From IMG/VR virus record IMGVR_UViG_3300045988_167732, positions 32,001-96,000 of that record: 64,000 nucleotides of DNA, one strand, 5' to 3'. Below the pieces are notes generated by a model. That model was not told the DNA's origin. It ran no database searches and saw nothing but the letters and a program-made list of their open reading frames with translations. Position 1 is the first letter of the stretch, and the number at the start of each line of letters is the position of its first letter. Of the stretch, positions 16,019 through 60,955 are shown in pieces. The position numbers and the translations under genes are program-made. Source of the stretch: a virus.

Positions 16019-16020
16019 TT

Positions 16021-17688: not shown

Positions 17689-17809
17689 CAGAATTTATTA
17701 TAGCTGCTCGTAATAAATTCGTAGTATTAGAAGCAGTAAAGGTACGAGTATGGTATCCGGCACGGGAATGGTCGTTAAGGGCGAGATAAAGCTGAGCTCC
17801 CTTTTATAT

Positions 17810-18530: not shown

Positions 18531-18851
18531 ATGGATTACATTGATAAGCAGTTTGCTAAACGTGGATATAAATTAGTACGTCAAAATGAATATGGCGCTT
18601 ATTATGAAAGAAAAGATAATAAGTTTAATTATACAAGTGAGCTTTGTATTATAGCTAAAGCAAATGGTAAACATCTTATTCAGTGTTATGATGCCCAAGT
18701 AGTTTATGGTCATCCTGAAAAGGATTCTAATAACTATCGTGTTATGAATCAAGTTGATGGAATTGATGCTTCTCTTTCTTTTTGGATTTGGTTAAAGTTT
18801 CATCAGCTTAAACACAAATATAAGTGGGATAAGGTGAAGAAACATGATTAA
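18531..18851 (+). CDS. hypothetical protein
   Basis: ORF after the SD-like AAAGGGTG. Confidence 0.7.
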   Translation: MDYIDKQFAKRGYKLVRQNEYGAYYERKDNKFNYTSELCIIAKANGKHLIQCYDAQVVYGHPEKDSNNYRVMNQVDGIDASLSFWIWLKFHQLKHKYKWDKVKKHD

Positions 18852-19116
18852 GAAATATATTAAGAAGCCAGTTACCATTGAAGCTATTATTTGGGATGGT
18901 GCTAATGAAGCTGAAATTATGGAATTCGTTGGTGCTCATTGCTGTGTTACTACTCAGCATACTATTAATGGTACTGTAACTAATCTTATCATTAATACTC
19001 TTGAGGGAGACCATTATGCTTCTGTTGGCGATTATATCGTTAAGGGAATTAAAGGTGAGTTTTATCCTGTTAAGCCTGATATTATGAAATTGACTTATGA
19101 TGAGGTTACGGAGTAA
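18844..19116 (+). CDS. conserved phage small protein (GDYIV..GE.YP.KPDI..TY motif)
   Basis: Overlapping start. The motif is recalled from other phage proteins of unknown function. Confidence 0.65.
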   Translation: MIKKYIKKPVTIEAIIWDGANEAEIMEFVGAHCCVTTQHTINGTVTNLIINTLEGDHYASVGDYIVKGIKGEFYPVKPDIMKLTYDEVTE

Positions 19117-19553
19117 TGGATACTTCTTTGTTTGAAATTGTAGGTCATTATTATATTTGGACTGGTGAAATTACTAAATTCCGAGTTGATGATATTCTAA
19201 GAGATAAAGAATTTAATTATTGGTATAAGATAGATTCTGAAACTATTGAATATCCTTGGGAAGTTCGCATTTTAGATGCTACTCAAGTTTGGACTAATGC
19301 TGATTGTTATCAAGATAGTACATCGGGTAAATGGATTTATAGATGTATTCCTTATGATGGTTTAATCTTTAGTCTCGAAGCTAATTCTATGACAGAATTA
19401 GTAGACCTTATTAGAGATTTTGTTACTCCTCCTGAAGACAAAGAAGAAGAACTTGTTGCAAGTTCTAATCATAGTTGCTTTACTAATCAGGTTTCGATGT
19501 GCGTAAGAAAAAATTCTGATAAAAATTCTAATAAAGACTTGACAAAGATTTAA
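19116..19553 (+). CDS. hypothetical protein
   Basis: TAATG overlap with the upstream gene. Confidence 0.7.
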   Translation: MDTSLFEIVGHYYIWTGEITKFRVDDILRDKEFNYWYKIDSETIEYPWEVRILDATQVWTNADCYQDSTSGKWIYRCIPYDGLIFSLEANSMTELVDLIRDFVTPPEDKEEELVASSNHSCFTNQVSMCVRKNSDKNSNKDLTKI

Positions 19554-19651
19554 AAGTGTGGTAAGATAAATATATCTTAAGAGAAGAGAAAAATAAAAAC
19601 TTCTCAAAAAGATAAAAAGTAAAAAAGCAAAAAGAAAATTTTAATAAGTGG

Positions 19652-19680
19652 TTGACATCTTAAAGATGATATGCTATAAT
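19652..19680 (+). promoter_or_regulatory. consensus sigma70 promoter driving a P1 element and tRNA-Glu
   Basis: TTGACA-N17-TATAAT, exact consensus. Confidence 0.75.
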
Positions 19681-19716
19681 AAGTGCATAAGTAAAACCTC
19701 CTGATTCATTAAAAAG

Positions 19717-19832
19717 TAGACTCTTACAGCAAATTCCTAAAAAGGTTAACACAATTGTCTGCAAAACAATCATTAGCGAGTTCGATTCTCGTCAGAGGGC
19801 GCTCTGTGGTGAATAATACGCAAAAGAGTCTA
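19717..19832 (+). ncRNA. P1/ACAGCAA structured RNA, copy 2 (T-arm plus closed acceptor-like hairpin)
   Basis: TAGACTCT..AGAGTCTA stem, TACAGCAA, GCGAG-TTCGATT-CTCGT followed by the CAGAG-GGCG-CTCTG hairpin. Confidence 0.7.
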
Positions 19833-19841
19833 GGTTAATAT

Positions 19842-19917
19842 GCTCGGTTAGTCAAGTGGTCTAAGACGGCGGGTTTTCATCCCGTAAACAAGAGTTCGAT
19901 TCTCTTACCGAGTACCA
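19842..19917 (+). tRNA. tRNA-Glu(TTC), CCA encoded
   Basis: Anticodon loop TTTTCAT, T-loop TTCGATT. Confidence 0.8.
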
Positions 19918-20092
19918 TTATTCAAATCAGAAATCCGTTCTTATGATAGTGAGAGTAAGTTTTATCGGATTTAAATGAGGGGAACTTAAATCTATCGAAG
20001 GGTTAAGAAATAATTGTTTGACGAAAAGTTGTTTCTCCTTTCTCTCTATCTGATATGAATAATTTCCTTTCTGTAAGATGATATTTATAAAG

Positions 20093-20224
20093 TAGAGACT
20101 AACAGCAATTTTGAAAATATGTTAAAAAGCCAAGCTCCCATTCTTCGGTTCGAATCCGAACGTCTTCAGTTGAAGTATGTAGCCAAGTGGTTTAAGGCAG
20201 GAGTCCATAACAACAATGTCTCTA
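20093..20224 (+). ncRNA. P1/ACAGCAA structured RNA, copy 3 (circularly permuted tRNA-like fold)
   Basis: TAGAGAC..GTCTCTA stem. Order of parts: GCTCC, T-arm TTCGG-TTCGAAT-CCGAA, short closed acceptor hairpin CTTC-AGTT-GAAG, D-arm-like AGCCAAGTGGTTTAAGGC, then GGAGT pairing back to GCTCC. Confidence 0.7.
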
Positions 20225-20232
20225 GTATTTAT

Positions 20233-20375
20233 GCCCGTGTAGCTCAGTAGGAAGAGCACTTGCCTTGATGGAGTAGTATAAGAAATACATCCTATAAAGG
20301 AAGGTGTGAGTTCAAATCTCATTTTCATCACCGTTAAGCAAGGAGTCGAGAGTTCGAGCCTCTCCACGAGCACCA
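20233..20375 (+). tRNA. tRNA-Lys(TTT) (alternative reading Asn-GTT) interrupted by a 67-nt tRNA-like element
   Basis: Canonical D and T arms, anticodon stem CTTGC/GCAAG, discriminator A plus CCA, one C-A mismatch in the acceptor. Removing 20267-20333 leaves CTTTTAA. Confidence 0.65.
20267..20333 (+). ncRNA. nested tRNA-like element (ACCG end)
   Basis: GATGGAG/TTTCATC acceptor, GTAT-AAGAA-ATAC D-arm, GTGAG-TTCAAAT-CTCAT T-arm. Confidence 0.65.
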
Positions 20376-20411
20376 ATAGCAGAAATGCTAATTTTGTAAT
20401 GACTTCAATAG

Positions 20412-20474
20412 TAGACGCTTGCAGCAATTTTAATTGTACTTATCTGTTAAATAAGAATGCATAAAAAGCGTCTA
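20412..20474 (+). ncRNA. P1/ACAGCAA structured RNA, copy 4 (minimal, 63 nt)
   Basis: TAGACGCT..AGCGTCTA 8-bp stem, TGCAGCAA, A-run before the 3' arm. Confidence 0.6.
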
Positions 20475-20503
20475 GCCCCTTTCTAAAAGGAGAAATTAAA
20501 AAT

Positions 20504-20588
20504 GGGTGAGTAGTGAATCGGCAAACACGGGAGTCTGTAAAACTCTTTCTTAACGGAGTAGAAGGGTCGGCACCTTCCTCACCCACCA
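20504..20588 (+). tRNA. tRNA-Tyr(GTA), class II, CCA encoded
   Basis: Anticodon loop CTGTAAA, long variable arm, unusual T-loop GTCGGCA. Confidence 0.8.
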
Positions 20589-20607
20589 CTTTAAAGGAGA
20601 AAATATT

Positions 20608-20778
20608 ATGGGTTTCATGGGAGAAATTTCAGAAGATATTGGTTGGAATGATTGTATTAATTATCTTCTAAAGAATGTTGATAAATTTCAAGAGACTTTA
20701 GATGGTGGAGCTTATGATTATTTTCCCGACGAAGAAATCAAAGAAGCTTTAAAGAAGCTAATTAGACCAGAAATCTAA
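20608..20778 (+). CDS. hypothetical small protein (56 aa)
   Basis: AAAGGAG SD 7 nt upstream of the ATG, TAA stop. Below the ORF-track size cutoff. Confidence 0.55.
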   Translation: MGFMGEISEDIGWNDCINYLLKNVDKFQETLDGGAYDYFPDEEIKEALKKLIRPEI

Positions 20779-20800
20779 TAAAATTTTTGTTTTAAAACTC

Positions 20801-20829
20801 TTGACAAAATGAAAATTTTGCGCTATAGT
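20801..20829 (+). promoter_or_regulatory. sigma70-type promoter
   Basis: TTGACA-N17-TATAGT. Confidence 0.7.
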
Positions 20830-20907
20830 AAAAATATGATAAAGATACAAATTTATTTGTAAGCTAATTGTTCATTTTTTATTGTTCATAAAAGCATTCC
20901 TTTCAGG

Positions 20908-21036
20908 TAGACTCTAACAGCAACTTTACAATCACAAATGCTATGGGCCTGTTTGTTGGAGGTTCGAATCCTTCACTCCCGACCATCGGGAGTTAGCTCA
21001 ACGGATAGAGCAACAGATTTTGTAAAAATGAGTCTA
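20908..21036 (+). ncRNA. P1/ACAGCAA structured RNA, copy 5: circularly permuted tRNA (3' half-ACCA-T-5' half)
   Basis: TAGACTC..GAGTCTA stem. GGAGG-TTCGAAT-CCTTC T-arm, ACTCCCG-A-CCA, one T, then CGGGAGT-TA-GCTC..GAGC D-arm and a U-rich anticodon-like segment. The acceptor is a perfect 7 bp. Confidence 0.7.
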
Positions 21037-21099
21037 GTCAATAAATTAATAAATTGACGCTCCTATTTTTCTAATAGGCAAATATAAATTCCTTTCAAG

Positions 21100-21215
21100 T
21101 AGACACGTACAGCAAAATTACTTGATGCTTTAATATGGAAAATTAACGATAAGGTTCGACTCCTTAATCTTCTTTTGAAGATGCGTGGTTGCTGGAAATC
21201 AAAAAAACGTGTCTA
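21100..21215 (+). ncRNA. P1/ACAGCAA structured RNA, copy 6 (T-arm plus closed acceptor-like hairpin)
   Basis: TAGACACG..CGTGTCTA stem, CAGCAA pairs with TTGCTG, TAAGG-TTCGACT-CCTTA followed by ATCTTC-TTTT-GAAGAT. Confidence 0.7.
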
Positions 21216-21225
21216 GGTTAAGTAT

Positions 21226-21310
21226 GGCTGAGTGGCGAAATTGGCAGACGCAGTTGCTTCAAGTACAACCCTCGAAAGAGATGTGGGTTCAAGTCCCACC
21301 TCAGCTACCA
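21226..21310 (+). tRNA. tRNA-Leu(CAA), class II, CCA encoded
   Basis: Anticodon loop TTCAAGT, long variable arm, T-loop TTCAAGT. Confidence 0.75.
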
Positions 21311-21852
21311 AAGTTACAGTTCAATTGGCAGATAGCGAATGTAACTTATATTAAACTGCCCGATTCAGCAAGGATGGCTAAAGCCTTGTCGGTGTTCCAT
21401 ATATTTGAACTCATCTTTAGTCCGTTAAGCTAAAGCCCCAACGCCCGTCCGAAGTCTTGGAGTAGAGAACAAGTGAATGGTTCTCGAACGCAAAGTAAGC
21501 TGTCACAAGCTGAAAAAGGCTATAAGCCGCACATGGGTAGAACACAGATATATGGTGAGAGATGTTAGGGTGCGAATGTAACATCAAAAACCTACAGCGA
21601 AAAGCTATACGGAGAAGTCTGTGCCGTGTTTACGGGAATAGGTAGTTGCGTACCTATTCAAACAAAAACTCTGATTACTGCAACTAAATCGGGGTAGGTA
21701 TTGAGGTTATGGGTCATGTAACCTTAAAACACAATAAGCCGAGCATACTGCTTATTGCTCCTAACAGGTGGTGCTGAGGATGAACAACAAAAGCCAAGTT
21801 ATAGAGTTCTTGTAAAAAACTCTGTTGCTATTTGAAAGAATAGCTCAATTAT

Positions 21853-21928
21853 GGGCCTGTAACTCAGTTGGGAGAGTGTCTGCTTTGCACGCAGGAAGTC
21901 GCAAGTTCAAGTCTTGTCAGGTCCACCA
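21853..21928 (+). tRNA. tRNA-Ala(TGC), CCA encoded
   Basis: G3-U70 pair present, anticodon loop TTTGCAC. Confidence 0.85.
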
Positions 21929-22384
21929 TAAGAGTTAGTTGCTCTCTTAGGATAAAAAAAGCACCGTATTAACACGAGTTTACGATAATTAACTGGCCCT
22001 CGTCTGCGGGTAAACAGCAGTTTTAGGCTACTATAAGCCGAAGTTTTAAGGGCAGTTTCTTTAAAAAACATGCATATGGTTTTTCTTGTTATCTCTTTTT
22101 TATCCTAAAAATAGACGTAGCAGCATGACTTGAGGCTATACATCAAGCTCCTGAGACCGAAGAAAAAAAGCTCCCTGTATCGTCAATGGGAAAATAATCT
22201 ATCTGTTCCGTAATAACAGGTGGGAGGGAGTATTTTAGGTCGGCAAGACCACGAGAGGATAGCGCTGTTCTCTCAACCCTTTGCAAAGGTTGCTGATGGG
22301 TTTTCCAAACGGATGTGGAAATTAAATGAATGGAAGGGTATAATTCAGCCCAAAATCAGCTCTAAAATTCAAGAAAATATATTT

Positions 22385-22462
22385 GGGTGTGTAGTTCAGT
22401 CTGGTCAGAACACTTGACCGTTAATCAAGGAGTCGAAGGTTCAAATCCTTCCATACCCGCCA
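22385..22462 (+). tRNA. tRNA-Asn(GTT), CCA encoded
   Basis: Anticodon loop CCGTTAA, discriminator G. Confidence 0.8.
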
Positions 22463-22815
22463 AAAGTGGAGAGTGTAGGTTCGAGTCCTGCCCCGCTCGT
22501 GGGAAACCCTTGCAGGAAGCTGTTAGGTACAGCGCCACTTAGAATTTCTTTCACCTTATTACGCGAAATATGGGATTGAGATGTTGCTTTAGTCGGGTTC
22601 TTTTACAGCAGAAAATAAGAACGCACCTGTTTAATTGGGTTTTTCAGCACAGTAAAAACAAGAAAAACCTCGGTTGTTTAGAAATTTTCTTCTGATATTG
22701 AACGAAAACAAATAGAGAATTCTCTCATTGCAATGCCGAAAGGTAGTAAGTTACGAATTTACCCATGATAAATTACGAACTTGCTACCGAGTAGGGATAA
22801 GAGAGAATTAAACAT

Positions 22816-22891
22816 GCTTTGGTAGCTCAATTGGTAGAGCAGTGGACTGAAAATCCACGTGTAGCTAGTTCGATTCTGGCCTAAAGCACCA
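22816..22891 (+). tRNA. tRNA-Phe(GAA), CCA encoded
   Basis: Anticodon loop CTGAAAA. Confidence 0.85.
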
Positions 22892-22892
22892 T

Positions 22893-22976
22893 TGCTGGCG
22901 AGTGAAACGGATATATAAATCACGCTTGGCTCATACCCAAGTAATAGTGGGTTCGACTCCCATGCTTCAGCAACCA
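22893..22976 (+). tRNA. tRNA(CAT) (Met or Ile2 type) with extended acceptor stem and large D-loop
   Basis: Anticodon arm CTTGG-CTCATAC-CCAAG, T-arm GTGGG-TTCGACT-CCCAT. Two extra nucleotides between the T-stem and acceptor imply an 8-9 bp acceptor. Confidence 0.55.
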
Positions 22977-23000
22977 AAAAACAAAAGGAAGTAAATTCTA

Positions 23001-23306
23001 ATGACTGATTTTAAGACTTACATTTATTAGACAGCAAGTAATAAAAAGTTTGTTTATAGATGTCCTCATTGTAATAAAGGGATAATGCAAGTAGTAGAAA
23101 CAAAAATTGCTAAAAATGAAACTAATATTTTATCTTGGAATTATACTTGCCCAGTTTGTAAGAAAACGATTGTCTCTATTGAAAAAGATGGTTGTTCTTG
23201 CTTTAAGAGTGTGTTCCCTCCAATGACTCAAATTAGTGATAAAGAATTTGCTGATATTAAAAAGAATGTAGGAGAGAAAGATATTTATCTGTTCTCTGAA
23301 ACATAA
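23001..23306 (+). CDS. zinc-ribbon protein (1 in-frame TAG)
   Basis: ATG 23001 follows AAAGGAAG. In frame with track ORF 23085 across a single TAG. CPHC..CPVC. Confidence 0.7.
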
Positions 23307-23313
23307 AATAAAT

Positions 23314-23408
23314 GCTAGCGTACAGAAGTGGTCATAACTGCCATCACTTGAAATGATGTGTGACGGCTTGTATCCGTCTCGTGAGTTCGAATCTTACCGC
23401 TAGTGCCA
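23314..23408 (+). tRNA. tRNA-Ser(TGA), class II, CCA encoded
   Basis: Anticodon loop CTTGAAA, long variable arm. Confidence 0.8.
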
Positions 23409-23427
23409 TGGAAAAAGGAGATTAAAA

Positions 23428-23943
23428 ATGAGCAATAATAATTCAATCGAAATCGAACGTAAGTTTTTAATCTCTGGTTTTCCTAAAGTCGATTTTGATG
23501 AAGTCGGAATTGTTAAAACTATCTATATTAATATCAAATATAATTCTGATGGAAAAATTTTACAGGAAATTCGTATAAGACGTTGGTTTGAAAGTGGCAA
23601 AGGTTATCGTCCAGATGCTCTTACTTTTAAATCTGGTGGTACTTTAATTCGTACCGAAATTGAAACAAATCTTACAGATAATTCTTTGTTTGACTGTTTT
23701 AATGAACTTGGTTATAATCCTATTGTAAAAGATTATAGAGGTCTTTACAATAATGGTTGTTTAATTGAATTTAATCTTGTAGATGGCGGAACTGATACTG
23801 CTTTCTACTATGCCGAAGTTGAATTCAATTCTGAGGAAGAAGCTAATAGTTTTGTTTGGCCTTTTCCTGAAGTATTTATTGAGGAAGTTACTAATAAGCT
23901 TGAATATAAGATGGCAAATTATTGGAAACGTACTCGTGGATAA
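23428..23943 (+). CDS. CYTH-domain protein (triphosphate tunnel metalloenzyme)
   Basis: N-terminal IEIERKF carries the ExExK signature. Confidence 0.75.
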   Translation: MSNNNSIEIERKFLISGFPKVDFDEVGIVKTIYINIKYNSDGKILQEIRIRRWFESGKGYRPDALTFKSGGTLIRTEIETNLTDNSLFDCFNELGYNPIVKDYRGLYNNGCLIEFNLVDGGTDTAFYYAEVEFNSEEEANSFVWPFPEVFIEEVTNKLEYKMANYWKRTRG

Positions 23944-23966
23944 GGACTTTTATTAGTCCTTTATTT

Positions 23967-24098
23967 GCTTTCGTGGCTCAATCGGTAGAGCGCCTGATTT
24001 GATAGAGTGACAGAATGTATTGTCTTAGTTTGCAAGTTCAAGTCTTGCCTTTATCACCAGTAATCAGGATGTTGCAGGTTCGAGTCCTGTCGGAAGCT
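23967..24098 (+). tRNA. tRNA-Thr(TGT) interrupted by a 59-nt tRNA-like element; host CCA not encoded
   Basis: Acceptor GCTTTCG/CGGAAGC, anticodon stem CCTGA/TCAGG. Removing 24001-24059 leaves TTTGTAA. Confidence 0.75.
24001..24059 (+). ncRNA. nested tRNA-like element (ACCA end)
   Basis: GATAGAG/CTTTATC acceptor, GACA/TGTC D-stem, 7-nt linker, GCAAG-TTCAAGT-CTTGC T-arm, A-CCA. Confidence 0.7.
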
Positions 24099-24161
24099 GG
24101 GAACAAGGTCAAGCCTTCACGTTGGCGTTCCTGTTTAAACTAATTGACTAAAAGAGGTTTT

Positions 24162-25037
24162 ATGAAATATTGTCTCAATTGTGGTAAAGAATTAAATAAA
24201 CAAGTAAAAAAATTTTGTGATAATAAATGTTTTGTTGAATATTAGTATCACAAATATATTAAAAACTGGAAGCTTGGTAAAATTACAGGGGTCGTTGGTT
24301 TTGGGGTTAGTAAATATATAAGAAGATATTTATTAGAAAAGTATAATTATTCTTGCCAAGAATGTGGTTGGAATAAAATTAATCCTTATACTAATAAAAC
24401 ACCTTTGGAAATTCACCATAAAGATGGAAATTATTTAAATTGTTCAGAAGAGAATTTAGCTTTGCTTTGCCCCAACTGTCATTCTTTAACAGATACTTAT
24501 AAATCTTTGAATAGACCAGAAATGAGAAGAGATAGAACAAGATACAATCAAAGACCCAATCCTTTTTTTGATGAATTAAATTGTGATAAGAAAGAAAAGA
24601 AAAAATATTTTTGTCCGGTTTGTGGCAATGAAATAACCCGCAAGGCAAAATTATGTCTTAATTGCAGAAAAAAGGAAAATTTGAAAAACTCTAATAAACC
24701 CTCTAAAGAAATTTTAATGGAAGAATCTAAAAATTTTGTCTCTTATGTAAAATTAGGGGAAAAATATGGGGTATCTGACAATACTATTAGGAAGTGGTTC
24801 TCAAGTTACGATTTGCCTCTTCCTAAAAGGGAAAAAGCAGAATATAAACCAAAAGTCTACCATCCAGAATATTAGGTTTATACAACAAGAAAAACAGCTA
24901 CAGGATGGGAAAAATACTTAAAATTGGGTCAGCATAAAATTGCTCGATATGTTCCCAACCATACTGTTTCTCAAATAGAAGATTACATAAAAATTTTTTA
25001 TGATGAAGCTGTGAAAAAAGGAATTATTAATAAATAA
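24162..25037 (+). CDS. HNH homing endonuclease (2 in-frame TAG)
   Basis: N-terminal CLNCG..C..C ribbon, HHKDGN..N..NL..LCPNCH HNH core. The frame continues through TAG at 24873 to TAA 25035. Confidence 0.8.
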
Positions 25038-25068
25038 TAACAAACAAAAAAGAAATTTTAAAAAGTAC

Positions 25069-25097
25069 TTGACAAGATGAAAAGTATATGTTATACT
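25069..25097 (+). promoter_or_regulatory. sigma70-type promoter
   Basis: TTGACA-N17-TATACT. Confidence 0.7.
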
Positions 25098-25129
25098 TAA
25101 GATGTGGTTGAGAGATACAACCTAAAAAT

Positions 25130-25205
25130 GCGGCAGTGTGGAAGCGCTATCCAGCCTACGCACCGAACGTGGGAGTCGCCAGTTGGAATCTGGTCTGCCG
25201 CTCCA
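25130..25205 (+). tRNA. tRNA-Arg(CCG)-like, non-canonical (A33, 6-bp anticodon stem)
   Basis: Acceptor GCGGCAG/CTGCCGC, D-arm TGGA/TCCA, CCTACG-CACCGAA-CGTGGG, T-loop TTGGAAT, T-CCA. Confidence 0.5.
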
Positions 25206-25341
25206 ATTCCTTAGTAGTTTAAAAGACGATAAACAAATTAAAATACCCTTCAGTCGGAAAGCCTCTAATGAGTATAGAATGGCACTCAAGTAGGGAGTTC
25301 TGGATGGGCGAATCGGAACCACCAGCTAAGGAAAAATATAT

Positions 25342-25416
25342 AGGGGTATAGCCAAATGGTGAAGGCAGCGGTCTTTGACGCCGCCATTAAAGGTTCGAAT
25401 CCTTTTATCCCTGCCA
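25342..25416 (+). tRNA. tRNA-Gln(TTG), CCA encoded
   Basis: Anticodon loop CTTTGAC, T-loop TTCGAAT. Confidence 0.8.
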
Positions 25417-25445
25417 TAAGCAACAATTCAAATTATCGTTTAACG

Positions 25446-25564
25446 TAGACGCTTACAGCAAACAATAATAAAATCAAATTCTATAAAAAAGATTTATGGT
25501 ATTGTTCCTTGCTAATTAGTTTATGATGCTTTCATGATTCTCCTTTGTTAGTATTATGCGTCTA
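25446..25564 (+). ncRNA. P1/ACAGCAA structured RNA, copy 7
   Basis: TAGACGC..GCGTCTA stem, TTACAGCAA. AGCAAACAATA can pair with TATTGTTCCTTGCT. Confidence 0.6.
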
Positions 25565-25572
25565 GTTTATAA

Positions 25573-25639
25573 GTGCCGTACCAAGGTTGGAGCTACTCGA
25601 CGGAGAACTTAAGAAGGGGTTCGAATCCCCCACGGTGCA
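25573..25639 (+). ncRNA. tRNA-like minihelix RNA (acceptor plus T-arm, no clear anticodon arm)
   Basis: GTGCCGT/ACGGTGC acceptor, T-loop TTCGAAT. The central 35 nt does not fold as D and anticodon arms. Confidence 0.45.
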
Positions 25640-25696
25640 AGATTGAATTGTTTGGAGTACTACAAACAAGATGGTAAGTTATTGATGATTTAAAAG

Positions 25697-25759
25697 TAAA
25701 CCCTTACAGCAATTTAATTATTTAATTTTTGCTTGAAAAAAGATTAAGGATAGGGTTTA
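25697..25759 (+). ncRNA. P1/ACAGCAA structured RNA, copy 8 (minimal)
   Basis: TAAACCCT..AGGGTTTA stem, TACAGCAA. Confidence 0.6.
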
Positions 25760-25779
25760 GTCCTGTAATGTTGAAAAAG

Positions 25780-25865
25780 TAGACACATACAGCAATTAAA
25801 ATAAAAATACTGGGAAATATATTTAATTGGAATAAATACTTTTTTTAGATTTTTTATTGTGTCTA
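25780..25865 (+). ncRNA. P1/ACAGCAA structured RNA, copy 9
   Basis: TAGACACA..TGTGTCTA stem, TACAGCAA. Confidence 0.6.
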
Positions 25866-25876
25866 GGATTTTATAT

Positions 25877-26010
25877 GCTGATATAGCTCAATAGGTTAGA
25901 GCTTCCGACCACGAAATAGCTTAAGAAAAGCAAAGGATGTAAGTTCAAATCTTACTTTCGTGACCATTATAATCGGAGGGTTGAGTGTTCGAGCCACTCT
26001 ATCAGCACCA
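25877..26010 (+). tRNA. tRNA-Ile(TAT) interrupted by a 57-nt tRNA-like element
   Basis: Canonical arms, anticodon stem TCCGA/TCGGA, A-CCA end. Removing 25910-25966 leaves CTTATAA. Confidence 0.75.
25910..25966 (+). ncRNA. nested tRNA-like element (ACCA end, no anticodon arm)
   Basis: CACGAAA/TTTCGTG acceptor, GCTT-AAGAA-AAGC D-arm, 7-nt linker, GTAAG-TTCAAAT-CTTAC T-arm, A-CCA. Confidence 0.75.
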
Positions 26011-26107
26011 TTTAAATACAGGTAGCATTGGAGTAATTAACCAATGAGAAAATAATGCCCAAACATTAAGCTGTATTTTTTAAAAATTCTTTTGGGAGGA
26101 TTAAAAA

Positions 26108-26905
26108 ATGATTGAGTTAACTGAAGAACAGAAAAAATTAGAATTGTCAAATGATAATTGGAAAATTGTTCCAAATTGGTCAAGATATGAAGTAAATTAG
26201 TATCGGATTCTACGAAACAAAAAAACCAAACATATTTTAACATCAAAAGATAATAAGAGAGGATATTTAATTTATCTTGTTCTTAGAGATGATGATAACA
26301 GAATTCACATTTTGTCAAAACATAAAGCTGTAGCTTTGGCATGGGTTCCCAACCCCTAGAATTTACCTATTATAAATCACAAAGACGAAGACAAATTAAA
26401 TTGCTTTTATTAGAATTTAGAATGGTGTACAAGCAGTTATAATAACAGTTACAACGGGACAGGTAAAAAGAGAAGTGAAAAATTTAAAAAGACTTTTTTT
26501 GTTTATGATTCTGAGCGGAATTTAATAGAAAAAAGAAAAGGCATAAATGAATTTTGCGCAGAAAATAATTTATCTTCTCGGTGTGCTAGTTCTATTTTAA
26601 AAAAGAATAGTGAAGAAGAAAAATGTTATAGTATAAAAGGATTTTATCTTTTTTACGAACAAATAACAAAAGAAGATTTTTTATAGAGAAAGCAAAAAGT
26701 TTTTAATATAGGGAATTTAGGCAAAAAGAAATTTTCTAAAAAAGTTTATCAATATGATTTACAAAACAATCTTCTTCAAATTTATTCTAGTGTACATGAA
26801 GTTAAAGAGAAAAATGATTTAGCTACAACGTCAGTAATAAGTGCTTGTTGTAGAAATAAAATAAAAACTGCTTATGGATATAAATGGAGTTATGTTCCAT
26901 TATAA
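26108..26905 (+). CDS. HNH/NUMOD-type homing endonuclease (4 in-frame TAG)
   Basis: W..VPNWSRYEV, GY..YL, VHR-like KHKAVALAWVPNP, NHKDEDKLN..NLEW, C-terminal AYGYKWSY. All lie in one frame broken only by TAG. Confidence 0.8.
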
Positions 26906-26919
26906 ACAAAAAAATAAAG

Positions 26920-26987
26920 TAGACTCTTACAGCAATTACTTAGAGACTTGTGATTTGGGATTACATATGTTTTGAAAAATGAGTCTA
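26920..26987 (+). ncRNA. P1/ACAGCAA structured RNA, copy 10 (minimal)
   Basis: TAGACTC..GAGTCTA stem, TTACAGCAA, A-run before the 3' arm. Confidence 0.6.
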
Positions 26988-26997
26988 GCTTTATTAA

Positions 26998-27078
26998 GCG
27001 CCTGTAGTCTAATTGGATAAAACAGCACTCTTCTAAAGTGTATTTTTTATACGAGTTCGAATCTCGTCAGGCGTACCA
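26998..27078 (+). tRNA. tRNA-Arg(TCT), CCA encoded
   Basis: Anticodon loop CTTCTAA, T-loop TTCGAAT. Confidence 0.8.
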
Positions 27079-27153
27079 TGAGGAGTAGCATAGCGGCAAA
27101 TGCACTAGTCTCTAAAACTAGGTAAACAGGGTCGGCACCTGTCTCCTCTGCCA
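27079..27153 (+). tRNA. suppressor tRNA, anticodon CTA (reads UAG)
   Basis: Anticodon arm CTAGT-CTCTAAA-ACTAG, T-arm ACAGG-GTCGGCA-CCTGT, G-CCA end. D-loop, anticodon arm and T-loop closely resemble the phage tRNA-Tyr, but the long variable arm is missing. Positions 1:72 form a T-T mismatch. Confidence 0.75.
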
Positions 27154-41926: not shown

Positions 41927-42867
41927 TGAGAGTTTTATCTTTGTTTGATGGTATTTGTTGCGGTCATCTTGCACTTGAAAGAGCTGGAATTAAGATTGAT
42001 TCTTATGATGCTTATGAAATTGAAAAGAACGCCATTAAAGCTACAGAAACAAATTTCCCTGATGTAGTTCATCATGGAGATGTAACTAAAGAAGATTTTA
42101 CAAAATATAAAGGGAAACTTGATTTAATTATCGGAGGTTCGCCCTGCCAAGGCTTTTCTTCTTCGGGTAAACAACTTAATTTCAATGACCCTCGAAGCAA
42201 ACTCTTCTTTGAATATGTGAGAGCAATTAAGGAATGTCAACCTAAATACTTTCTCCTTGAAAATGTTGTAATGAAAAAGGAATGGCAAGATATTATTTCT
42301 TCTTATCTTGGAGTAGAACCTATTGAGATTAATTCTTCTCTTGTTTCAGCACAAAATAGACGTAGACTTTATTGGACTAATATCCCTAATGTAACACTTC
42401 CCGAAGATAAAAACATTACTCTGGAAGATATTCTTGAAGATATTGAATTTCCTAATCCTGCGGCGATTAGAGGACGTAGATTAAACAAAGCTACTATTGT
42501 TGGTCGCAGATTAGATGAAAATGGCCATAGAAAAGATACTGATAAAACAATTCCTATTACACAATGTCTTGAAGTCCGCGCTACAAATACAGACAAATCA
42601 AATTGTCTCACTACTGTAGACAAGGATAATGTTCTTACACCACTTCCTATTGGTAGACATCCAGATGCTTTTAAAAATAATTTGCCTTTTAGATATTACA
42701 CTACAAAAGAAATGTGTCGTTTACAGACTGTTCCTGATGATTTTCTTAACATGATTCCAGATAGTGCAGCAAGAAAAGCTTTAGGTAACGGATGGACTGT
42801 AGATGTAATTGCTCATATTTTTAGTTTTCTTCCAGATGAATATAAAGAGGACAAAATAAATGATTAA
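41926..42867 (+). CDS. DNA (cytosine-5)-methyltransferase
   Basis: Motif I LSLFDGI, motif IV GGSPCQGFS, ENV, QTVPDDF, GNGWTVDV. Confidence 0.9.
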   Translation: MRVLSLFDGICCGHLALERAGIKIDSYDAYEIEKNAIKATETNFPDVVHHGDVTKEDFTKYKGKLDLIIGGSPCQGFSSSGKQLNFNDPRSKLFFEYVRAIKECQPKYFLLENVVMKKEWQDIISSYLGVEPIEINSSLVSAQNRRRLYWTNIPNVTLPEDKNITLEDILEDIEFPNPAAIRGRRLNKATIVGRRLDENGHRKDTDKTIPITQCLEVRATNTDKSNCLTTVDKDNVLTPLPIGRHPDAFKNNLPFRYYTTKEMCRLQTVPDDFLNMIPDSAARKALGNGWTVDVIAHIFSFLPDEYKEDKIND

Positions 42868-43045
42868 GATTGGTGAAAAAGAATTTGTTAATGGAGATAT
42901 CTATTACAATCCTTTTTTTGGGGATTTGTGGATAATTCAAAATAACACCGAGATACGCAAAATCAATGACACTTATACTACTGATGTTAACGATGTTGTT
43001 GGTTTTATATATGTCGGACATGTTGATTTGGAGGTAATACAATGA
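42860..43045 (+). CDS. hypothetical small protein
   Basis: 61-aa ORF overlapping its neighbours. Confidence 0.55.
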   Translation: MIKIGEKEFVNGDIYYNPFFGDLWIIQNNTEIRKINDTYTTDVNDVVGFIYVGHVDLEVIQ

Positions 43046-43407
43046 GTTATGATATTAGTTATAGAGTTCAATGTAAAGATGACCCTAAACTTTGGGCTGA
43101 TGTTGGAAACTGTGAAGCAAATATTACTTACAATTTGCGTGAAATGATTTAGAAATCTACAGGCTTAGAATGGAAAAATGAAGAAGATAATGGTCTTGTA
43201 AAAGATGTTATTCCTTTTATCATTCATGGTTTAGAAGAGCTTGAAAGATTTCCAAATAAATATAAACAATATGAATCTCCTAATGGATGGGGAACAATTA
43301 GTGGATGCAAGAGTTTTTTTACTCGATGTATTTTAGATTGGACTAATTTTACAGAAGATAGTTGGACTTCTCCTTATAAAGACATTGTTCATTTTTGGAT
43401 TGTATGA
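43042..43407 (+). CDS. hypothetical protein (1 in-frame TAG)
   Basis: ATG 43042 follows GGAGGT. Open to TGA 43405 with one TAG. Confidence 0.7.
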
Positions 43408-43604
43408 AATCAAATCAACATTTAATAAATCTAAATTTGGCAAATTGTTTGTTTTATTTATATTATTTTATTTTAATTGGAATAGCAGGATTAGATAATT
43501 CAACTGGAGAAATATTAACTCCTTTTTGTTTATTTATAAGTGGTTGTTTATTTATGATTGCTGTTCATTTTTTCAAACTTTATTTAAAGGACAAAGAAAA
43601 ATGA
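43404..43604 (+). CDS. small membrane protein
   Basis: Two hydrophobic helices. Confidence 0.6.
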   Translation: MKSNQHLINLNLANCLFYLYYFILIGIAGLDNSTGEILTPFCLFISGCLFMIAVHFFKLYLKDKEK

Positions 43605-43828
43605 CGATTGAAAGACTAAGAGATATTCTCAATGATGTAGCAAACGGTGCAAATTGGGAACTATACAAAAACTCATTAGTAGTAATTAGCGTAGAAGATT
43701 CTAGAAACACTGTGGGAAGTAGACCTTACACAAAAGTTCGCTCAGTAGGCATGGGCTTTGATTGGGAAGCAGGTCAATTTAGAATTGAACCTGAAAATAA
43801 ATTAATGGAGGTTAGTAAAAGAAAATGA
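43601..43828 (+). CDS. hypothetical protein
   Basis: ATG 43601 (ATGA overlap). Confidence 0.65.
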   Translation: MTIERLRDILNDVANGANWELYKNSLVVISVEDSRNTVGSRPYTKVRSVGMGFDWEAGQFRIEPENKLMEVSKRK

Positions 43829-44097
43829 ACACTACTCAAGTTGCTTTGTGCATCATCCTTGCTATCGGAGTTTTAACAATTTTCTTTTTAGCAGGAACTA
43901 TTATTGGTGGTATCCATGCTTATTCAAAAGCTTTTGCAGAAGCCGAAGAAACCCATAAAAATTTAGATGAGGCTAAAGAAAGTCTTATTAAATCTTTAGA
44001 AGGGAAAGCAGAAGCACAAAAAGAACTTATTGAATCCTATGAAGAGCTGGTAAAAACTCTTCAAGAAAAAAATAATAAACCCTTGACAGAAAATTAA
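43825..44097 (+). CDS. membrane-anchored coiled-coil protein
   Basis: N-terminal TM helix. Confidence 0.7.
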   Translation: MNTTQVALCIILAIGVLTIFFLAGTIIGGIHAYSKAFAEAEETHKNLDEAKESLIKSLEGKAEAQKELIESYEELVKTLQEKNNKPLTEN

Positions 44098-44111
44098 TCT
44101 TATGGTATATT
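44083..44111 (+). promoter_or_regulatory. sigma70-type promoter of a large ncRNA
   Basis: TTGACA-N17-TATATT with a TG extension. Confidence 0.7.
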
Positions 44112-44117
44112 AAGATT

Positions 44118-44746
44118 GTCCCAAGGGAAAGGGCGAAAAAAGTGCGGAAGAGATTCCCATTGGTTTGCACTACTCGGGCCTGATAGACAAATCACGTTCT
44201 TACCTGTAAGACATACAATTGAATATTCAATAATAGCTGAGATGCAATGACTTCGAAAGAAGCACCCTTCATAGGAATAGGAACTATGAAGATACTAAGA
44301 GCGTCAAGCTCTCCACCTGAAAGTTAATGGTGGAAATTCTTGCAAGAATCACGAAATCCTACCTTCCGAATTCTTGCTCGGTAGTGTAGGTTGATTGCCA
44401 ACTGAAGGATGTTGGACGAAGAGCGTCGCATTTCTTTAAATGCTAGGACCAGTGGCTCATAGTGAGGTGAACGTCGTCTATTCCTCACCTTTAATAAGAA
44501 TCCGATGGGGGTCGGAGCGCTTGTTATCGTATTTGAATAACCTACGGGTAGGTTGTTCGCAGTTTTACAGAAGACTTGTAAGCACTTGTCCGTCAAAATG
44601 GATAGCCGCAAACGGGAAAGTTTCAATGAGTGTAGGAAGTAATGTAACGGGGAATAACTTCTAAGTCTTTACAATTTATTGAATTAGCTAATTTAATAAA
44701 AGGTCTCATAATTAATTTAATATTGATTATGAGACTATTATTTTTA
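44118..44746 (+). ncRNA. large (~0.6 kb) structured ncRNA candidate, class unknown
   Basis: Own promoter, no credible ORF in any frame, visibly higher GC than the flanks, many local helices. Ends at the terminator hairpin GGTCTCATAAT..ATTATGAGACT plus a T-tract. Confidence 0.6.
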
Positions 44747-44761
44747 TAATAGAGGTGTAAC

Positions 44762-45247
44762 ATGGATAATTTCTGGAAGACATCATTGGAAAACAAGAAG
44801 AAAGAACTTTCTGAAATTAATAAAGATTTAAACAAACTTACAAAAAAATCTTATGATGAATATATTATGAAAGAACTCGCTCCAAAGCTGATTGGAAAAT
44901 GTTACATTCATCGGGGACATTATATTATGATTGTTCAACCTCCCAAATTGTTAGAAGGAAGATGTGAGGTTAACTATTCTTCTTCATGGGGTTGTATTGA
45001 GATTAACAATTTTGAAAATGAAACACCTTATGGTTGCTATACAGATTCAGAAATTGATTTAGCTCCTTATTATAATGAGGACATTGATTTGTTTTTCCTT
45101 TTAAATTATCCGAAAAATTTTACCCGTTTTCAGCCTATTTCTTGTGACGAGTTTTACGCCAAAATGGATGAAGCGATTTGCGAGTCTAAAAAGAGGATTG
45201 AAAATATGCTGAAAAAGGTAAATCCACGCAAATTTTACAGGTTTTAA
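44762..45247 (+). CDS. hypothetical protein
   Basis: AGAGGTG SD. Confidence 0.7.
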   Translation: MDNFWKTSLENKKKELSEINKDLNKLTKKSYDEYIMKELAPKLIGKCYIHRGHYIMIVQPPKLLEGRCEVNYSSSWGCIEINNFENETPYGCYTDSEIDLAPYYNEDIDLFFLLNYPKNFTRFQPISCDEFYAKMDEAICESKKRIENMLKKVNPRKFYRF

Positions 45248-45290
45248 TGTCAAAAATAGGTCAAAACGAGTAAAAAGAGGTAAATAAAAT

Positions 45291-46310
45291 ATGTTTTTTA
45301 AGAAGCCCGAAAAAAAGGTTGTTCTCGAATATGAATCTTACCCTGCATCTGGTGTAGATTTTGAAGAATCTTCCAGCGAATCTTACACGAATAATCTTCC
45401 TAATCACACAGTTCTCAGCAGAAATACTTGGGAATATGAAAAAATGGAAGATGTACCTTTTCCTATCGGAGAAGATTGGGAATGGATTGATTGTTACAAA
45501 GCTCTTTATAAGGTCTATTACCTTACTAATAAAGAAGTAAAATATATAGGTCCTAGTCGAAACTTTGCATACGAACTGAACAAAATCTATTCTTTACCAG
45601 AAGGAGAAGAAGAATTTAGCAAAGTGGATTACTGTGGCAATGGTTTTCATGCTTGTTTAACTGTAAAAGATGCTTTAACTTGGTATAATTACATTTCTTA
45701 TGATGCATTCATTGCTGATTATAATTATAGTTATAGTGTTGCTATTAAACTAACTGTTGTTGCTAAAGCAAAACTTTTGGTTAACAAAAAAGATTTGGCA
45801 AATTGCTATGGTAATACTAAACTTGACAACGGTAAAGTTGTAGGGAAAGCTATTATCTTAACTGGTTTTGTTAATCCAAAAGAAGTTTATGATAACCGAA
45901 AAGAAGACGTATATTGGAGAATTGACGTTCTTAATGATTACGGTTGTGATTATTTAAAAGCCATCTGCAAAAAAGAAGGCATTAATCTCAATGTTTTAAA
46001 TAAGTTAATCAAAAAGCTTGAAATTACTTTTCCCTACTATGAGAAAATACTTGACTTTATTGATGATAAAAATATCTCTACAACGGCTTATATCAACGCT
46101 ATGTTAGATGCATACCGTATTAATAGTAAAGAAATTTATCAATGCTTAAACATGAGTTATGGTCAAGTATTGACGGAAGAAATCGTAAACAACCTTGACT
46201 ATCAATTTGCAATGCGTTTAGCTGACAATGATGATGCTTATAACAGAAGCTTATCTGTAGCTGAAAAAATGCAGATTCTTTATTCTCATCAGATGATTTC
46301 TAAAAAGTAA
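45291..46310 (+). CDS. hypothetical protein
   Basis: 339-aa ORF, AAGAGGT SD. Confidence 0.75.
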   Translation: MFFKKPEKKVVLEYESYPASGVDFEESSSESYTNNLPNHTVLSRNTWEYEKMEDVPFPIGEDWEWIDCYKALYKVYYLTNKEVKYIGPSRNFAYELNKIYSLPEGEEEFSKVDYCGNGFHACLTVKDALTWYNYISYDAFIADYNYSYSVAIKLTVVAKAKLLVNKKDLANCYGNTKLDNGKVVGKAIILTGFVNPKEVYDNRKEDVYWRIDVLNDYGCDYLKAICKKEGINLNVLNKLIKKLEITFPYYEKILDFIDDKNISTTAYINAMLDAYRINSKEIYQCLNMSYGQVLTEEIVNNLDYQFAMRLADNDDAYNRSLSVAEKMQILYSHQMISKK

Positions 46311-53582: not shown

Positions 53583-54614
53583 ATGGCAACTGTTTAGTAT
53601 CATTATGGTAAAAATAATTCTTTGCTTCGTTGGTATCATCCTATTGTAAGAGGCGTGACTTATAATAATGTGGTGGTAATTGATTGGCCTAAGAGTGAAC
53701 TAAAGAGCGCAAGTATAGATATGTGTACGCAACCAAAGCTTAGTCCTGAAAAAATGTATAACCTTTATGGTTATAAACCTGATGTTGTAACAAACGCTTT
53801 CTTCTTTGATACTGCAAGCGGAACTTCTATCTGGAATTTGAAAAGTAATAATACTGTTTATGCCAAAGATGGTAATTTCTCTAATGGCTGGGGTATTACA
53901 AATTCTGGAAAGATTATGAATGGCGTATTTAACAATGGTGTTGGTTGGAGAGACTTTGGCACAGAATATCCTGCTTTATTTAAAAATAAACAGCCTCAAT
54001 CTGTAAAAAACTATGCTGACATTGATTATGAAGCCAAAAGACAGATGTTCGGTTGGACAAAGACAGATGGTAATCCTAAAAACGAAAAGTATTTTATTGT
54101 TTCTGTTGTATCTGGTGGTATGAAACTTTCCACTGCTCAGAATCTTATTAAATCTCTTTTTCCTGATGTAGATTATTGTTGCAATCAAGATGGCGGAAAT
54201 TCTACTTATACAAACTTTGAAGGAAAGCGTCTTTCTGCGTCTGGTTGGTTAAGACCTGTTGATTCTATTCTTGCTTTCTGGCTTCGTTCTAATGCTGAAA
54301 GAGAAAAAGCAGAAACAGAAGAAAAGAAACAAGACAAGGCTAACAAAAAAGAAGAAAACCGTCCTAAGAAAACTGGCTACCGTTGTCAGTTAGGAGCTTT
54401 TAGCAATTCTACTCGTGCAATTACTTACAGAAATGAAATTAGAACTCTTACTGGTGTAATTGATTATTCAACGGCTTTCTGTGTTCAAGACCCCAAAACA
54501 AAGCTCTATAAGGTCCAAGTAGGTTTTTTTGCTAAAAAGTCTGGTGCTGAAAAGGTTAAGGCAGATTTGGCTGAAAAGGGATATAATTGTTATATTTGCT
54601 ATGTGGAGGAATAA
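53583..54614 (+). CDS. cell-wall hydrolase-like protein: phosphodiester glycosidase-like domain plus C-terminal SPOR domain (1 in-frame TAG)
   Basis: NQDGGNST motif. C-terminal YRCQLGAFSN..YKVQVGFFAKK..A is SPOR-like. ATG 53583 follows GGAGA; a TAG is the fifth codon. Confidence 0.65.
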
Positions 54615-55297: not shown

Positions 55298-55326
55298 TTG
55301 ACAACACCTCTCCTTTATGGTATATT
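55298..55326 (+). promoter_or_regulatory. sigma70-type promoter with the spacer complementary to the downstream RBS
   Basis: TTGACA-N17-TATATT. ACACCTCTC (55304-55312) is complementary to GAGAGGTGT (55341-55349), followed by TTTTT and the ATG. Confidence 0.7.
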
Positions 55327-60926: not shown

Positions 60927-60955
60927 TTGACAGCTTCTTTCTTACTTGTTATAAT
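60927..60955 (+). promoter_or_regulatory. sigma70-type promoter with the spacer complementary to the downstream RBS
   Basis: TTGACA-N17-TATAAT. CAGCTTCTTTCTTA (60931-60944) is complementary to TAAAGAAAGGAGCTG (60966-60980). Confidence 0.7.

Follow-up and report, generated by a model that had tools for sequence, protein, structure and literature searches.

The 64,000-nucleotide (nt) stretch of viral DNA analyzed here, referred to as the window, comprises positions 32,001–96,000 of the IMG/VR record IMGVR_UViG_3300045988_167732. At approximately 44083–44746 on its + strand lies an element that is probably an independent gene encoding a large non-coding RNA of an uncatalogued family, an accessory molecule that would be expressed early and act in trans as a scaffold or decoy. 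Comparison with homologous sequences shows it to behave as an independent, conserved, strand-specific, structured, non-coding and dispensable unit, and the same comparison shows a predicted fold of about 25–30 helices on the + strand with a row of hairpins at the 5′ end, a middle part of H-type pseudoknots in variable copy number and a near-invariant 3′ core. Among the sequence collections searched, the family was found only in one clade of large AT-rich human-gut phages that appear to recode TAG in part. The element is a new family in the known kind of large ornate phage non-coding RNAs, the same kind as ROOL and GOLLD, and is a member of neither. Positions given below are those of the window, and features lie on the + strand unless stated otherwise.

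Promoter, terminator, and cassette boundaries

The element opens with a predicted σ70-type promoter with an extended −10 region at 44083–44111, composed of TTGACA (44083–44088), a 17-nt spacer and TATATT (44106–44111) with TG at 44103–44104. The site matches the consensus at 11 of 12 positions, is the top-scoring site within 42–47 kilobases (kb) and overlaps the stop codon of the upstream 90-amino acid gene; both hexamers and the TG are invariant across all homologues, and the spacer varies. Five + strand sites in the window, and none on the − strand, fit the pattern TTGACA-N13-16-TGNTAWAWT, for which 0.04 occurrences are expected. The other four promoters of this strong class are placed at 16727–16755, 19652–19680, 55298–55326, and 60927–60955, two of them within the transfer RNA (tRNA) island of the window, and the promoter at 55298 has TTATGGTATATT in common with the RNA promoter.

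At the opposite end, an intrinsic terminator (44702–44746) is formed by a stem of 15 base pairs (bp) closed by a 5-nt loop (44702–44736) and followed by ATTATTTTTA. It is kept in all homologues, with six wobble-compatible one-sided changes in its stem (helix 30 of the model described below). From these signals, the predicted transcript extends from approximately 44118 to approximately 44746. An initial annotation of the window had described a near-consensus extended −10 promoter at one end of this region and a strong hairpin with a T-tract at the other, and both descriptions agree with the comparative data.

The limits of the cassette (44114–44741) are set by an indel relative to a phage contig that has no copy of the RNA (L067/L091; ENA ERZ27253193 k141_699174, variant site 1480–1600). 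Window positions 43030–44113 align with 448–1529 of this contig and positions 44742–45864 with 1558–2663, and the intervening 628 nt of the window (44114–44741) are replaced by 28 nt. The RNA-less contig retains the promoter, which stands only ~40 nt from the ribosome-binding site (RBS) directly ahead of the gene for the downstream 161-amino acid protein and is predicted to drive it. This is the most divergent relative, its 161-amino acid protein being 71% identical, and no copy of the RNA occurs elsewhere in the 12 kb of the contig examined. A 1-kb contig (L072, Logan SRR31228232_336770, positions 1–240) has a deletion, possibly an assembly artefact, that removes the 3′ half of the RNA along with the 5′ arm of its terminator hairpin. 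Because the promoter and terminator frame a single exact indel, the RNA body and terminator together form one discrete cassette, and its absence from L067/L091 and half-deletion in L072 indicate that the cassette is dispensable.

Covariation and strand specificity of the secondary structure

Relatives were gathered through the flanking 90- and 161-amino acid proteins, which gave 15 IMG/VR contigs of 108–216 kb, and further Logan, ENA, and metagenome contigs, including a 164-kb human gut metagenome contig, were added through exact-protein look-ups and a metagenome motif scan. The element is syntenic in the 15 IMG/VR contigs and in the Logan, ENA, and metagenome contigs, and the count of related phage contigs that carry it at this locus is 25 or more, with 26 distinct sequences of 633–856 nt. 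The homologous elements are 80–97% identical and lie between protein genes in all relatives. The structure model of 30 helices and 175 pairs was counted on an alignment of 22 homologue sequences (A2, 3740 cells); a second alignment (A3) holds 20 orthologous and paralogous copies of hairpin P15 with the strand 5′ of it.

Standard pairs occupy 97.6% of the cells of A2. The comparative alignment for covariation that the initial annotation had recommended yields 23 pairs changed on both sides, compared with 9.7 ± 1.9 in shuffled alignments, none of 500 shuffles reaching 23. When the 3′ partners are moved by 1–3 columns as a slid-register control, only 2–7 pairs changed on both sides are counted. 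The compensatory pairs are located in P1, P3, P6, P7, P8, P10, P11, P12, P13, P14, P15, P17, and P18. G-U pairs account for 10.3% of the cells, and pairing drops from 97.6 to 88.3% if the alignment is read as the − strand; the G-U pairs and this drop indicate that the + strand RNA is the folded molecule. The insertions and deletions that distinguish the homologues correspond to whole hairpins or modules with lengths that are not multiples of 3,. Among them, P5 is extended by 24–27 nt, P7 or P8 is missing, P1 is replaced by a branched structure of ~50 nt, and segments of 85–150 nt are duplicated. Together with the conservation and the lack of a conserved open reading frame (ORF; see below), the covariation and strand-specific G-U pairs bear out the large structured phage RNA proposed from the window alone.

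Three further pairings were considered. A long-range helix between 44161–44173 and 44381–44392 suggested by RNAalifold was dropped because it is broken in several sequences (L003 and L068–71), whereas the competing local hairpin P10 is compensated. P19, a second long-range helix from RNAalifold that joins the 5′ end (44113–44119) to 44559–44565, is doubtful with no compensatory change and one break, and transcription starting near 44118 would remove most of it. A kissing contact between the P6 and P15 loops was not adopted, as it is invariant and overlaps pseudoknot PK2, which is favored by covariation.

Architecture of the predicted RNA

The 5′ domain is a row of hairpins, P1–P8 (44142–44333), defined by the model and its compensatory changes. 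P1 (44142–44160) carries three compensatory pairs; in three relatives (L014, L015, and L082) its place is taken by a branched hairpin of greater length in which one base is compensated. P2 (44178–44197) is followed by P3 (44198–44211), with one compensatory pair, and by P4 (44218–44231), a perfect 14-nt palindrome with an AUAU loop. An invariant single-stranded stretch, AAUAAUAGCUGAGAUGCAA (44232–44247), leads into P5 (44248–44264), which is capped by a GAAA tetraloop and is 24–27 nt longer in most relatives. P6 (44267–44291) presents the loop GAAUAGGAA and has two compensatory pairs. P7 (44298–44312) and P8 (44313–44333) have one and two compensatory pairs, respectively, and one or the other is deleted in some relatives.

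The middle part begins with the PK1 module (44336–44390), composed of the palindrome ATTCTTGCAAGAAT (44336–44349) and the P10/P11 hairpin. P10 pairs 44358–44362 with 44386–44390 (one compensatory pair) and P11 pairs 44366–44369 with 44378–44381 (two compensatory pairs). The 8-nt hairpin loop AUUCUUGC (44370–44377) is complementary to GCAAGAAU (44342–44349) placed 20 nt upstream. All eight of these pairs are 100% paired, with variation confined to G-U-compatible single changes, and PK1 is a candidate H-type pseudoknot or switch. The module is duplicated in L011, and a degenerate additional copy is present in L013 and L082. The P12 hairpin (44395–44419; helix 15) follows with four compensatory pairs and 98.7% pairing.

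The PK2 module (44421–44488) is built from a closing stem, P13 (44421–44424 with 44455–44458), and two hairpins, P14 (44428–44431 with 44440–44443) and P15 (44462–44467 with 44483–44488), the latter with a 15-nt loop. The P15 stem has two compensatory pairs in A3 and occurs in three compensated versions, GUGAGG/CCUCAC, GUAGGG/CCCUAC, and GUGUGG/CCACGC. GUCU in the P15 loop (44476–44479) pairs with GGAC upstream (44446–44449), a strand that reads GGAC or GGU across the copies. Two compensatory pairs in PK2 (AU to GC and CG to UA, in six sequences each) and 99.5% pairing of the module over the 20 copies of A3 define it, at the level of the alignment, as an H-type pseudoknot with covariation support. 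The PK2 module is present in one to three copies per homologue.

The conserved 3′ core domain (44492–44670) is near-invariant, and RNAalifold returns the same consensus fold for it. P16 (44492–44498 with 44520–44526) shows wobble-compatible single changes, P17 (44501–44506 with 44511–44516), closed by a GGGG loop, shows a compensatory UA to CG change in four sequences, and P18 (44535–44544 with 44549–44558), closed by a CGGG loop, is likewise compensated. P21 (44570–44577 with 44663–44670) encloses P22–P25: P22 (44583–44587 with 44628–44632), P23 with a CAAA loop (44588–44593 with 44598–44603), a tentative P24 also with a CAAA loop (44606–44608 with 44613–44615), and P25 (44635–44640 with 44657–44662), whose 16-nt loop contains CGGGGAA. 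P23 and P25 carry wobble-compatible single changes. The nucleotide identity of the core is 92–99% compared with 14 of 15 relatives and 85% compared with L073, whereas that of the adjoining 161-amino acid gene is 81–94%; the 3′ core is therefore better conserved than the flanking coding DNA.

Between the core and the terminator, P26 (44675–44700; helix 29) is an AU-rich hairpin of 11 bp with a self-complementary AGCU loop. It is 100% paired with four one-sided wobble changes and holds a 12-nt perfect palindrome (44682–44693). Three hairpins of the RNA are thus perfect palindromes with self-complementary tetraloops, namely P4 (AUAU), 44336–44349 (UGCA), and P26 (AGCU). Perfect palindromes of at least 14 nt number eight in the 64-kb window; the two that lie within the RNA are invariant in 22 of 22 and 21 of 22 homologues.

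Coding potential and composition

The ~630 nt downstream of the promoter had been described as lacking a credible ORF, and no frame is conserved under either the standard or a recoded reading. The longest ORFs of the region have 74 (+ strand), 100 (− strand), and 44 (+ strand) amino acids. No frame of 44098–44761 is open in the standard code, and read-through of TAG, TGA, or TAA opens none; with TAG or TGA recoded the longest frame has 74 codons on the + strand and 114 codons on the − strand. Across the 22 homologues the longest ORF is inconsistent, shifting in strand, frame, and length (55–114 codons). A protein gene under genetic code 15 or 4 is accordingly rejected, no frame opening after read-through and none being conserved.

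The concern over code 15, under which a translated ORF would according to the initial annotation refute a non-coding element, is legitimate because the phage encodes a suppressor-type tRNA with anticodon CTA (27079–27153, labelled "Pyl") and TAG-rich ORFs. In-frame TAG codons occur on the + strand in the ORFs at 7448–8389 (nine), 10115–11020 (seven), 38821–39303 (five), and 26105–26905 (four), and the tRNA and these ORFs indicate that TAG is recoded in some of the phage genes. In the element itself, TAG read-through opens no frame. The guanine plus cytosine (GC) content noted as visibly elevated is 0.40 in the element compared with 0.329 in the window, which places it at the 94th percentile among 628-nt windows.

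Distribution

Beyond this clade, no homologue was found in the blastn and motif scans. With the window RNA as query, blastn in "distant" mode gave no match among 50,697 phage records, which include phage K. A two-motif scan of IMG/VR returned the same 15 contigs and chance matches only, a two-part motif scan of JGI metagenomes returned seven contigs of the same clade and two chance matches within coding sequence, and neither of two motifs was found in 185,579 reference genomes (one per GTDB species). The neighboring 161-amino acid protein family is similarly narrow, with only eight clusters, all at least 71% identical. Exact-pattern scans are blind to remote homologues, and for this reason the clade-restricted distribution is a lower bound. 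No mention of the conserved motifs was found in the literature searched, and the first 200 of the 408 supplementary files of a human-microbiome survey of structured RNAs (PMC8040213) contain no match.

Comparison with catalogued RNA families

Searches with Rfam 15 were made at gathering thresholds over the whole window, at E ≤ 10 (expectation value) with relaxed filters over 1 kb (43900–44900), and at E ≤ 1 in four divergent homologues. They returned, respectively, tRNAs only, noise only, and an unrelated RAGATH-18 RNA elsewhere in one homologue (L015). The families listed for checking in the initial annotation (ROOL, GOLLD, group I and group II introns, transfer-messenger RNA (tmRNA), and RNase P) thus give no match at E ≤ 10 or in the homologues. 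Its comparison with ROOL and GOLLD is correct as to kind, a large ornate phage RNA, and fails as to membership, as neither ROOL (RF03087) nor GOLLD (RF01998) has a covariance-model match at gathering, at E ≤ 10, or at E ≤ 1 in the homologues. Nor does the element share the frequent location of those RNAs beside or inside tRNA islands, as it lies 17 kb downstream of the island end. The RAGATH-18 RNA (RF03064) is placed at 6898–6970 of L015 (IMGVR_UViG_3300045988_162176), ~2.9 kb downstream of the start of the 161-amino acid gene, and scores 59.9 bits compared with a gathering threshold of 44.9; the window has no such match.

A group I intron (RF00028) has no match at E ≤ 10, and the element does not interrupt a gene but is flanked by a promoter and an RBS. 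The stretch CCGTCAAAA..GC..CGGGAAAG, which had been likened to a group I P3-P4 region, instead forms the two small CAAA-loop hairpins P23 and P24. Group II intron models (RF00029, RF02001, and related) give no matches; a GUGCG occurs at 44142, but the empty-site boundary is 44114. No model match was obtained for tmRNA (Rfam and ARAGORN), RNase P, 6S, signal recognition particle, OLE, HEARO, raiA, or Y RNA. For a riboswitch, T-box, or attenuator leader there is no Rfam cis-regulatory match, and on inspection of the sequence no conserved pairing was found that would act as an antiterminator by competing with the lower part of the terminator stem; the layout of a terminator followed by an RBS is still compatible with this class. 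A type III toxin-antitoxin antitoxin RNA is rejected in that there are no tandem repeats and no toxin or defence gene nearby besides a DNA methyltransferase, and PADLOC likewise finds no defence or toxin protein among the neighbors except a DNA methyltransferase. The element is assigned to a new family within the large ornate phage non-coding RNAs because it qualifies for none of the named families, as far as their models can detect.

Neighboring genes

The conserved locus is marked by two genes that lie outside the RNA. Upstream, 43825–44097 encodes a predicted membrane/coiled-coil protein of 90 amino acids, and downstream, 44762–45247 encodes the 161-amino acid protein, which has no assigned function. 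The RBS of the latter is placed ~5 nt past the terminator T-tract, with the ATG at 44762. A TTGATT/TATAAT match at 44723–44750 would start transcription within this RBS, and no convincing separate promoter is present.

A protein of 589 amino acids is encoded on the same strand 3 kb upstream of the RNA (39375–41144) and matches PHROG 850 ("RNA-binding protein") and the Pfam domains DUF2828, DUF7788, and VWA_2. Its gene is the GC-richest part of the window (0.46) and is overlapped by an antisense ORF of 600 amino acids (39405–41207). Homologues with 34–37% identity are present in 695 phage records, among them Bacillus, Enterococcus, Listeria, Staphylococcus, Mycobacterium, and Escherichia phages. 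No sequence match was found in the PDB, and a single-sequence AlphaFold model with a predicted local distance difference test (pLDDT) score of 41.5 is unusable.

The wider neighborhood contains a C5 cytosine DNA methyltransferase (41926–42867), a radical SAM protein (36897–37856), an RNase H-like protein (PF04308, 47650–48144), a SPOR-domain protein (53622–54614), and many small ORFs without family matches. Further away, 3680–6388 encodes a UvrD-like helicase with an intein-like insert (a weak Intein_splicing match at residues 294–586), and 8391–9650 encodes a separate protein with WGR and PARP catalytic domains. The tRNA island (13431–27153) contains 16 tRNAs identified by ARAGORN. Three short calls of 54–66 nt are made by Rfam only (16597–16662, 20267–20330, and 25910–25963) and three by ARAGORN only (20504–20588, 23314–23408, and 25130–25205), and these may be unusual or truncated tRNAs.

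Discussion

The promoter is strong and of host type, and the RNA would be transcribed early, strongly, and abundantly by the host RNA polymerase; its folded form would act in trans. The 3′ core may form the functional center and the repeated pseudoknot modules may provide multivalent binding sites. The RNA would then serve as a scaffold, or as a decoy titrating a factor of the host or of the phage, much like a phage "moron" or a counter-defence element. A binding platform is favored over one precise catalytic fold because the modules vary in copy number, the cassette is polymorphic for presence and absence, and it occupies a moron-like position behind a pre-existing promoter.

Several observations weigh against this interpretation or limit its force. 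The existence of the transcript, where it begins and ends, and how abundant it is are deduced from the DNA. The homologues belong to one narrow clade, with a flanking protein at least 71% identical, and the compensatory changes for this reason represent few independent events and may be shared by recombination. With so narrow a distribution and so little diversity, the covariation carries limited statistical weight, and in the 3′ core most helices vary too little to show any. The minimum free energy of the + strand is −181 kcal/mol (z −4.1) compared with −150 kcal/mol (z −2.25) for the − strand, but 18 control windows give z −1.2 ± 2.0 with a minimum of −5.0; the stability of the element is not exceptional, and as the controls reach −5.0 the z-score is suggestive and not decisive. 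A binding partner or target complementarity was looked for in the window and none was found, the complementarity of the conserved loops and linkers to the rest of the window being at chance level. A covariance model of the PK2 module finds only the one copy in the 64-kb window, with no dispersed copies. The terminator is placed directly ahead of the RBS of the next gene, as in cis-acting leaders, and the only features that suggest a scaffold or decoy mechanism are the varying number of modules and the fact that the cassette is dispensable.

Self-assembly into an RNA-only particle, a homo-oligomeric cage or ring held by loop-loop and duplex contacts and with a function tied to it, would account for the three palindromic hairpins with self-complementary loops, two of them essentially invariant palindromes of at least 14 nt, for the complementarity of GCAAGAAU and AUUCUUGC, which could pair within or between chains, and for the complementarity of AAUAGG in the P6 loop to a CUAUU motif kept in every P15-type loop. 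The size, phage origin, pseudoknotted fold, conserved 3′ half, and variable 5′ and middle parts also parallel GOLLD and ROOL (PMC12286853). Such a particle is nevertheless unlikely: no covariation lies behind any inter-chain contact, as all candidate contacts are invariant; kissing contacts of four AU-rich bases would be weak; pairing of the P6 loop with the P15 loop is in competition with PK2, which has covariation support; neither the ROOL nor the GOLLD model is matched; and a variable number of modules is ill-suited to a closed symmetric cage. The abutment of the terminator on the RBS of the 161-amino acid gene leaves room for a cis-acting leader, a giant 5′ untranslated region that would control this and later genes through the terminator by attenuation or in a riboswitch-like manner. 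That the 161-amino acid gene lacks a convincing promoter of its own, and that the same promoter would drive it directly in the RNA-less relative, fit such a role. It is improbable given the missing Rfam riboswitch, T-box, or leader match and the missing conserved antiterminator, the sole alternative pairing seen on inspection using AU-rich bases of the upper stem. In addition, 600 nt with duplicable modules far exceeds known attenuators, most conserved parts of the structure are hundreds of bases away from the terminator, and the cassette including the terminator is one indel unit.

The DUF2828/DUF7788/vWA protein raises the question of a Y-RNA-like partnership, possibly with a Ro60/TROVE-like protein in RNA repair or surveillance. 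Its domain matches, its position 3 kb upstream on the same strand, and the PARP/WGR and RNase H-like proteins also encoded in the window are in keeping with this, and bacterial Ro60 genes usually adjoin their Y RNAs, but the pairing is very improbable. Several genes separate the protein gene from the element; the protein family occurs in 695 phage records without a detectable copy of the RNA; the element has neither a Y RNA or YrlA match nor a tRNA-like module; and the relation to Ro60 is not confirmed, with no PDB sequence match, an unusable model (pLDDT 41.5), and a literature search that gave nothing. Least of all is it to be expected that the element is not an RNA gene but a decayed or recoded protein gene or a DNA element, for example a palindrome bound by a protein, a replication origin, or a site for packaging. 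TAG is recoded in some phage genes, the two invariant perfect palindromes could be DNA-binding sites, and the GC content is elevated. However, no frame is open or conserved under any recoding, there is no GC-skew switch at the element, the indels are whole hairpins of lengths unrelated to codons, and the compensatory, strand-specific pairing points to selection on RNA and not on DNA.

A stand-alone gene for a trans-acting RNA is thus the preferred reading. Beyond it, a more ambitious proposal is offered tentatively, that of a new ornate phage RNA class acting as RNA alone, either as a multimer formed, as in the ROOL and GOLLD nanocages, through invariant palindromic hairpins and complementary loops or as a multivalent pseudoknot decoy of a host factor, with module copies tuned by an arms race. 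If this were true, the giant RNAs of phages, of which very few are listed, would gain a third, unrelated family, from a TAG-recoding clade of human-gut phages. To our knowledge, structured bacterial and phage RNAs of more than 500 nt are rare, and each (ribosomal RNAs, group I and II introns, RNase P, OLE, GOLLD, and ROOL) is biochemically remarkable. The element adds to this class an unrelated family with at least one covariation-supported pseudoknot, a near-invariant core, and modules gained and lost between strains of a human-gut phage clade that is uncultured. It provides a defined target for cryo-electron microscopy, chemical probing, and pull-down, for which natural variants lacking the RNA or truncated in it already exist, and a case in which to ask if the large RNAs of phages, though without common ancestry, follow one logic, be it self-assembly or decoy and scaffold.

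Relation to known systems

Y RNAs and YrlA, which act with Ro60 (Rsr), are encoded near a TROVE + vWA RNA-binding protein, also in phages; they are ~100–200 nt in length and combine a Ro-binding stem with a tRNA-like module. The likeness lies in the DUF2828/vWA "RNA-binding protein" encoded 3 kb upstream of the element, whereas the element has no tRNA-like module or Rfam match and the DUF2828 protein is widespread in phages lacking the RNA. ToxI and the phage "pseudo-ToxI" are phage-borne RNAs of repeated pseudoknot units that vary in copy number and act as decoys neutralizing a host protein, the ToxI-type units being near-identical tandem repeats of ~34–45 nt. The element similarly has repeated pseudoknot-forming units with a copy number differing between phage variants. 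Its modules are larger (45–140 nt), embedded in a larger fold, and not repeated in tandem, and no ToxN-like protein is encoded nearby.

In the Kayvirus Staphylococcus phage K, a large phage of Firmicutes, RNA sequencing revealed the intergenic RNAs lnc001 (~635 nt) and lnc002 (~1.15 kb), and an early promoter of its own is reported for one of the two, the text and table of the paper disagreeing as to which (PMC9241854). Their function is not known, and they were compared with GOLLD and ROOL by their authors (PMC9241854). The element resembles them as an intergenic large phage RNA, lnc001 being of similar length, but has no sequence similarity to either; lnc001 adjoins a tRNA, and its structure is not covariation-based. 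In Rfam searches lnc001 gives a sub-threshold match to DUF3800-I only and none to ROOL or GOLLD.

ROOL RNAs of ~580 nt occur in phages and prophages of Firmicutes and of gut or rumen communities, contain multiple pseudoknots and a variable internal region, and are abundant, non-essential, and without a known protein partner (PMC12286853). RNAs of the ROOL/GOLLD type form cages through kissing loops (PMC12286853). The element differs from ROOL in its lack of an Rfam match, its distance from tRNAs, and its secondary structure, and is known here from sequence alone; it shares with ROOL the size class, the phage origin, the multiple pseudoknots, and a variable internal part. From GOLLD it is set apart by its position away from tRNAs, by other helices and motifs, by duplicable pseudoknot modules, and by its occurrence in one phage clade only. 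Like GOLLD, it is a very large (600–800 nt or more) phage- or prophage-encoded non-coding RNA with many predicted helices and pseudoknots.

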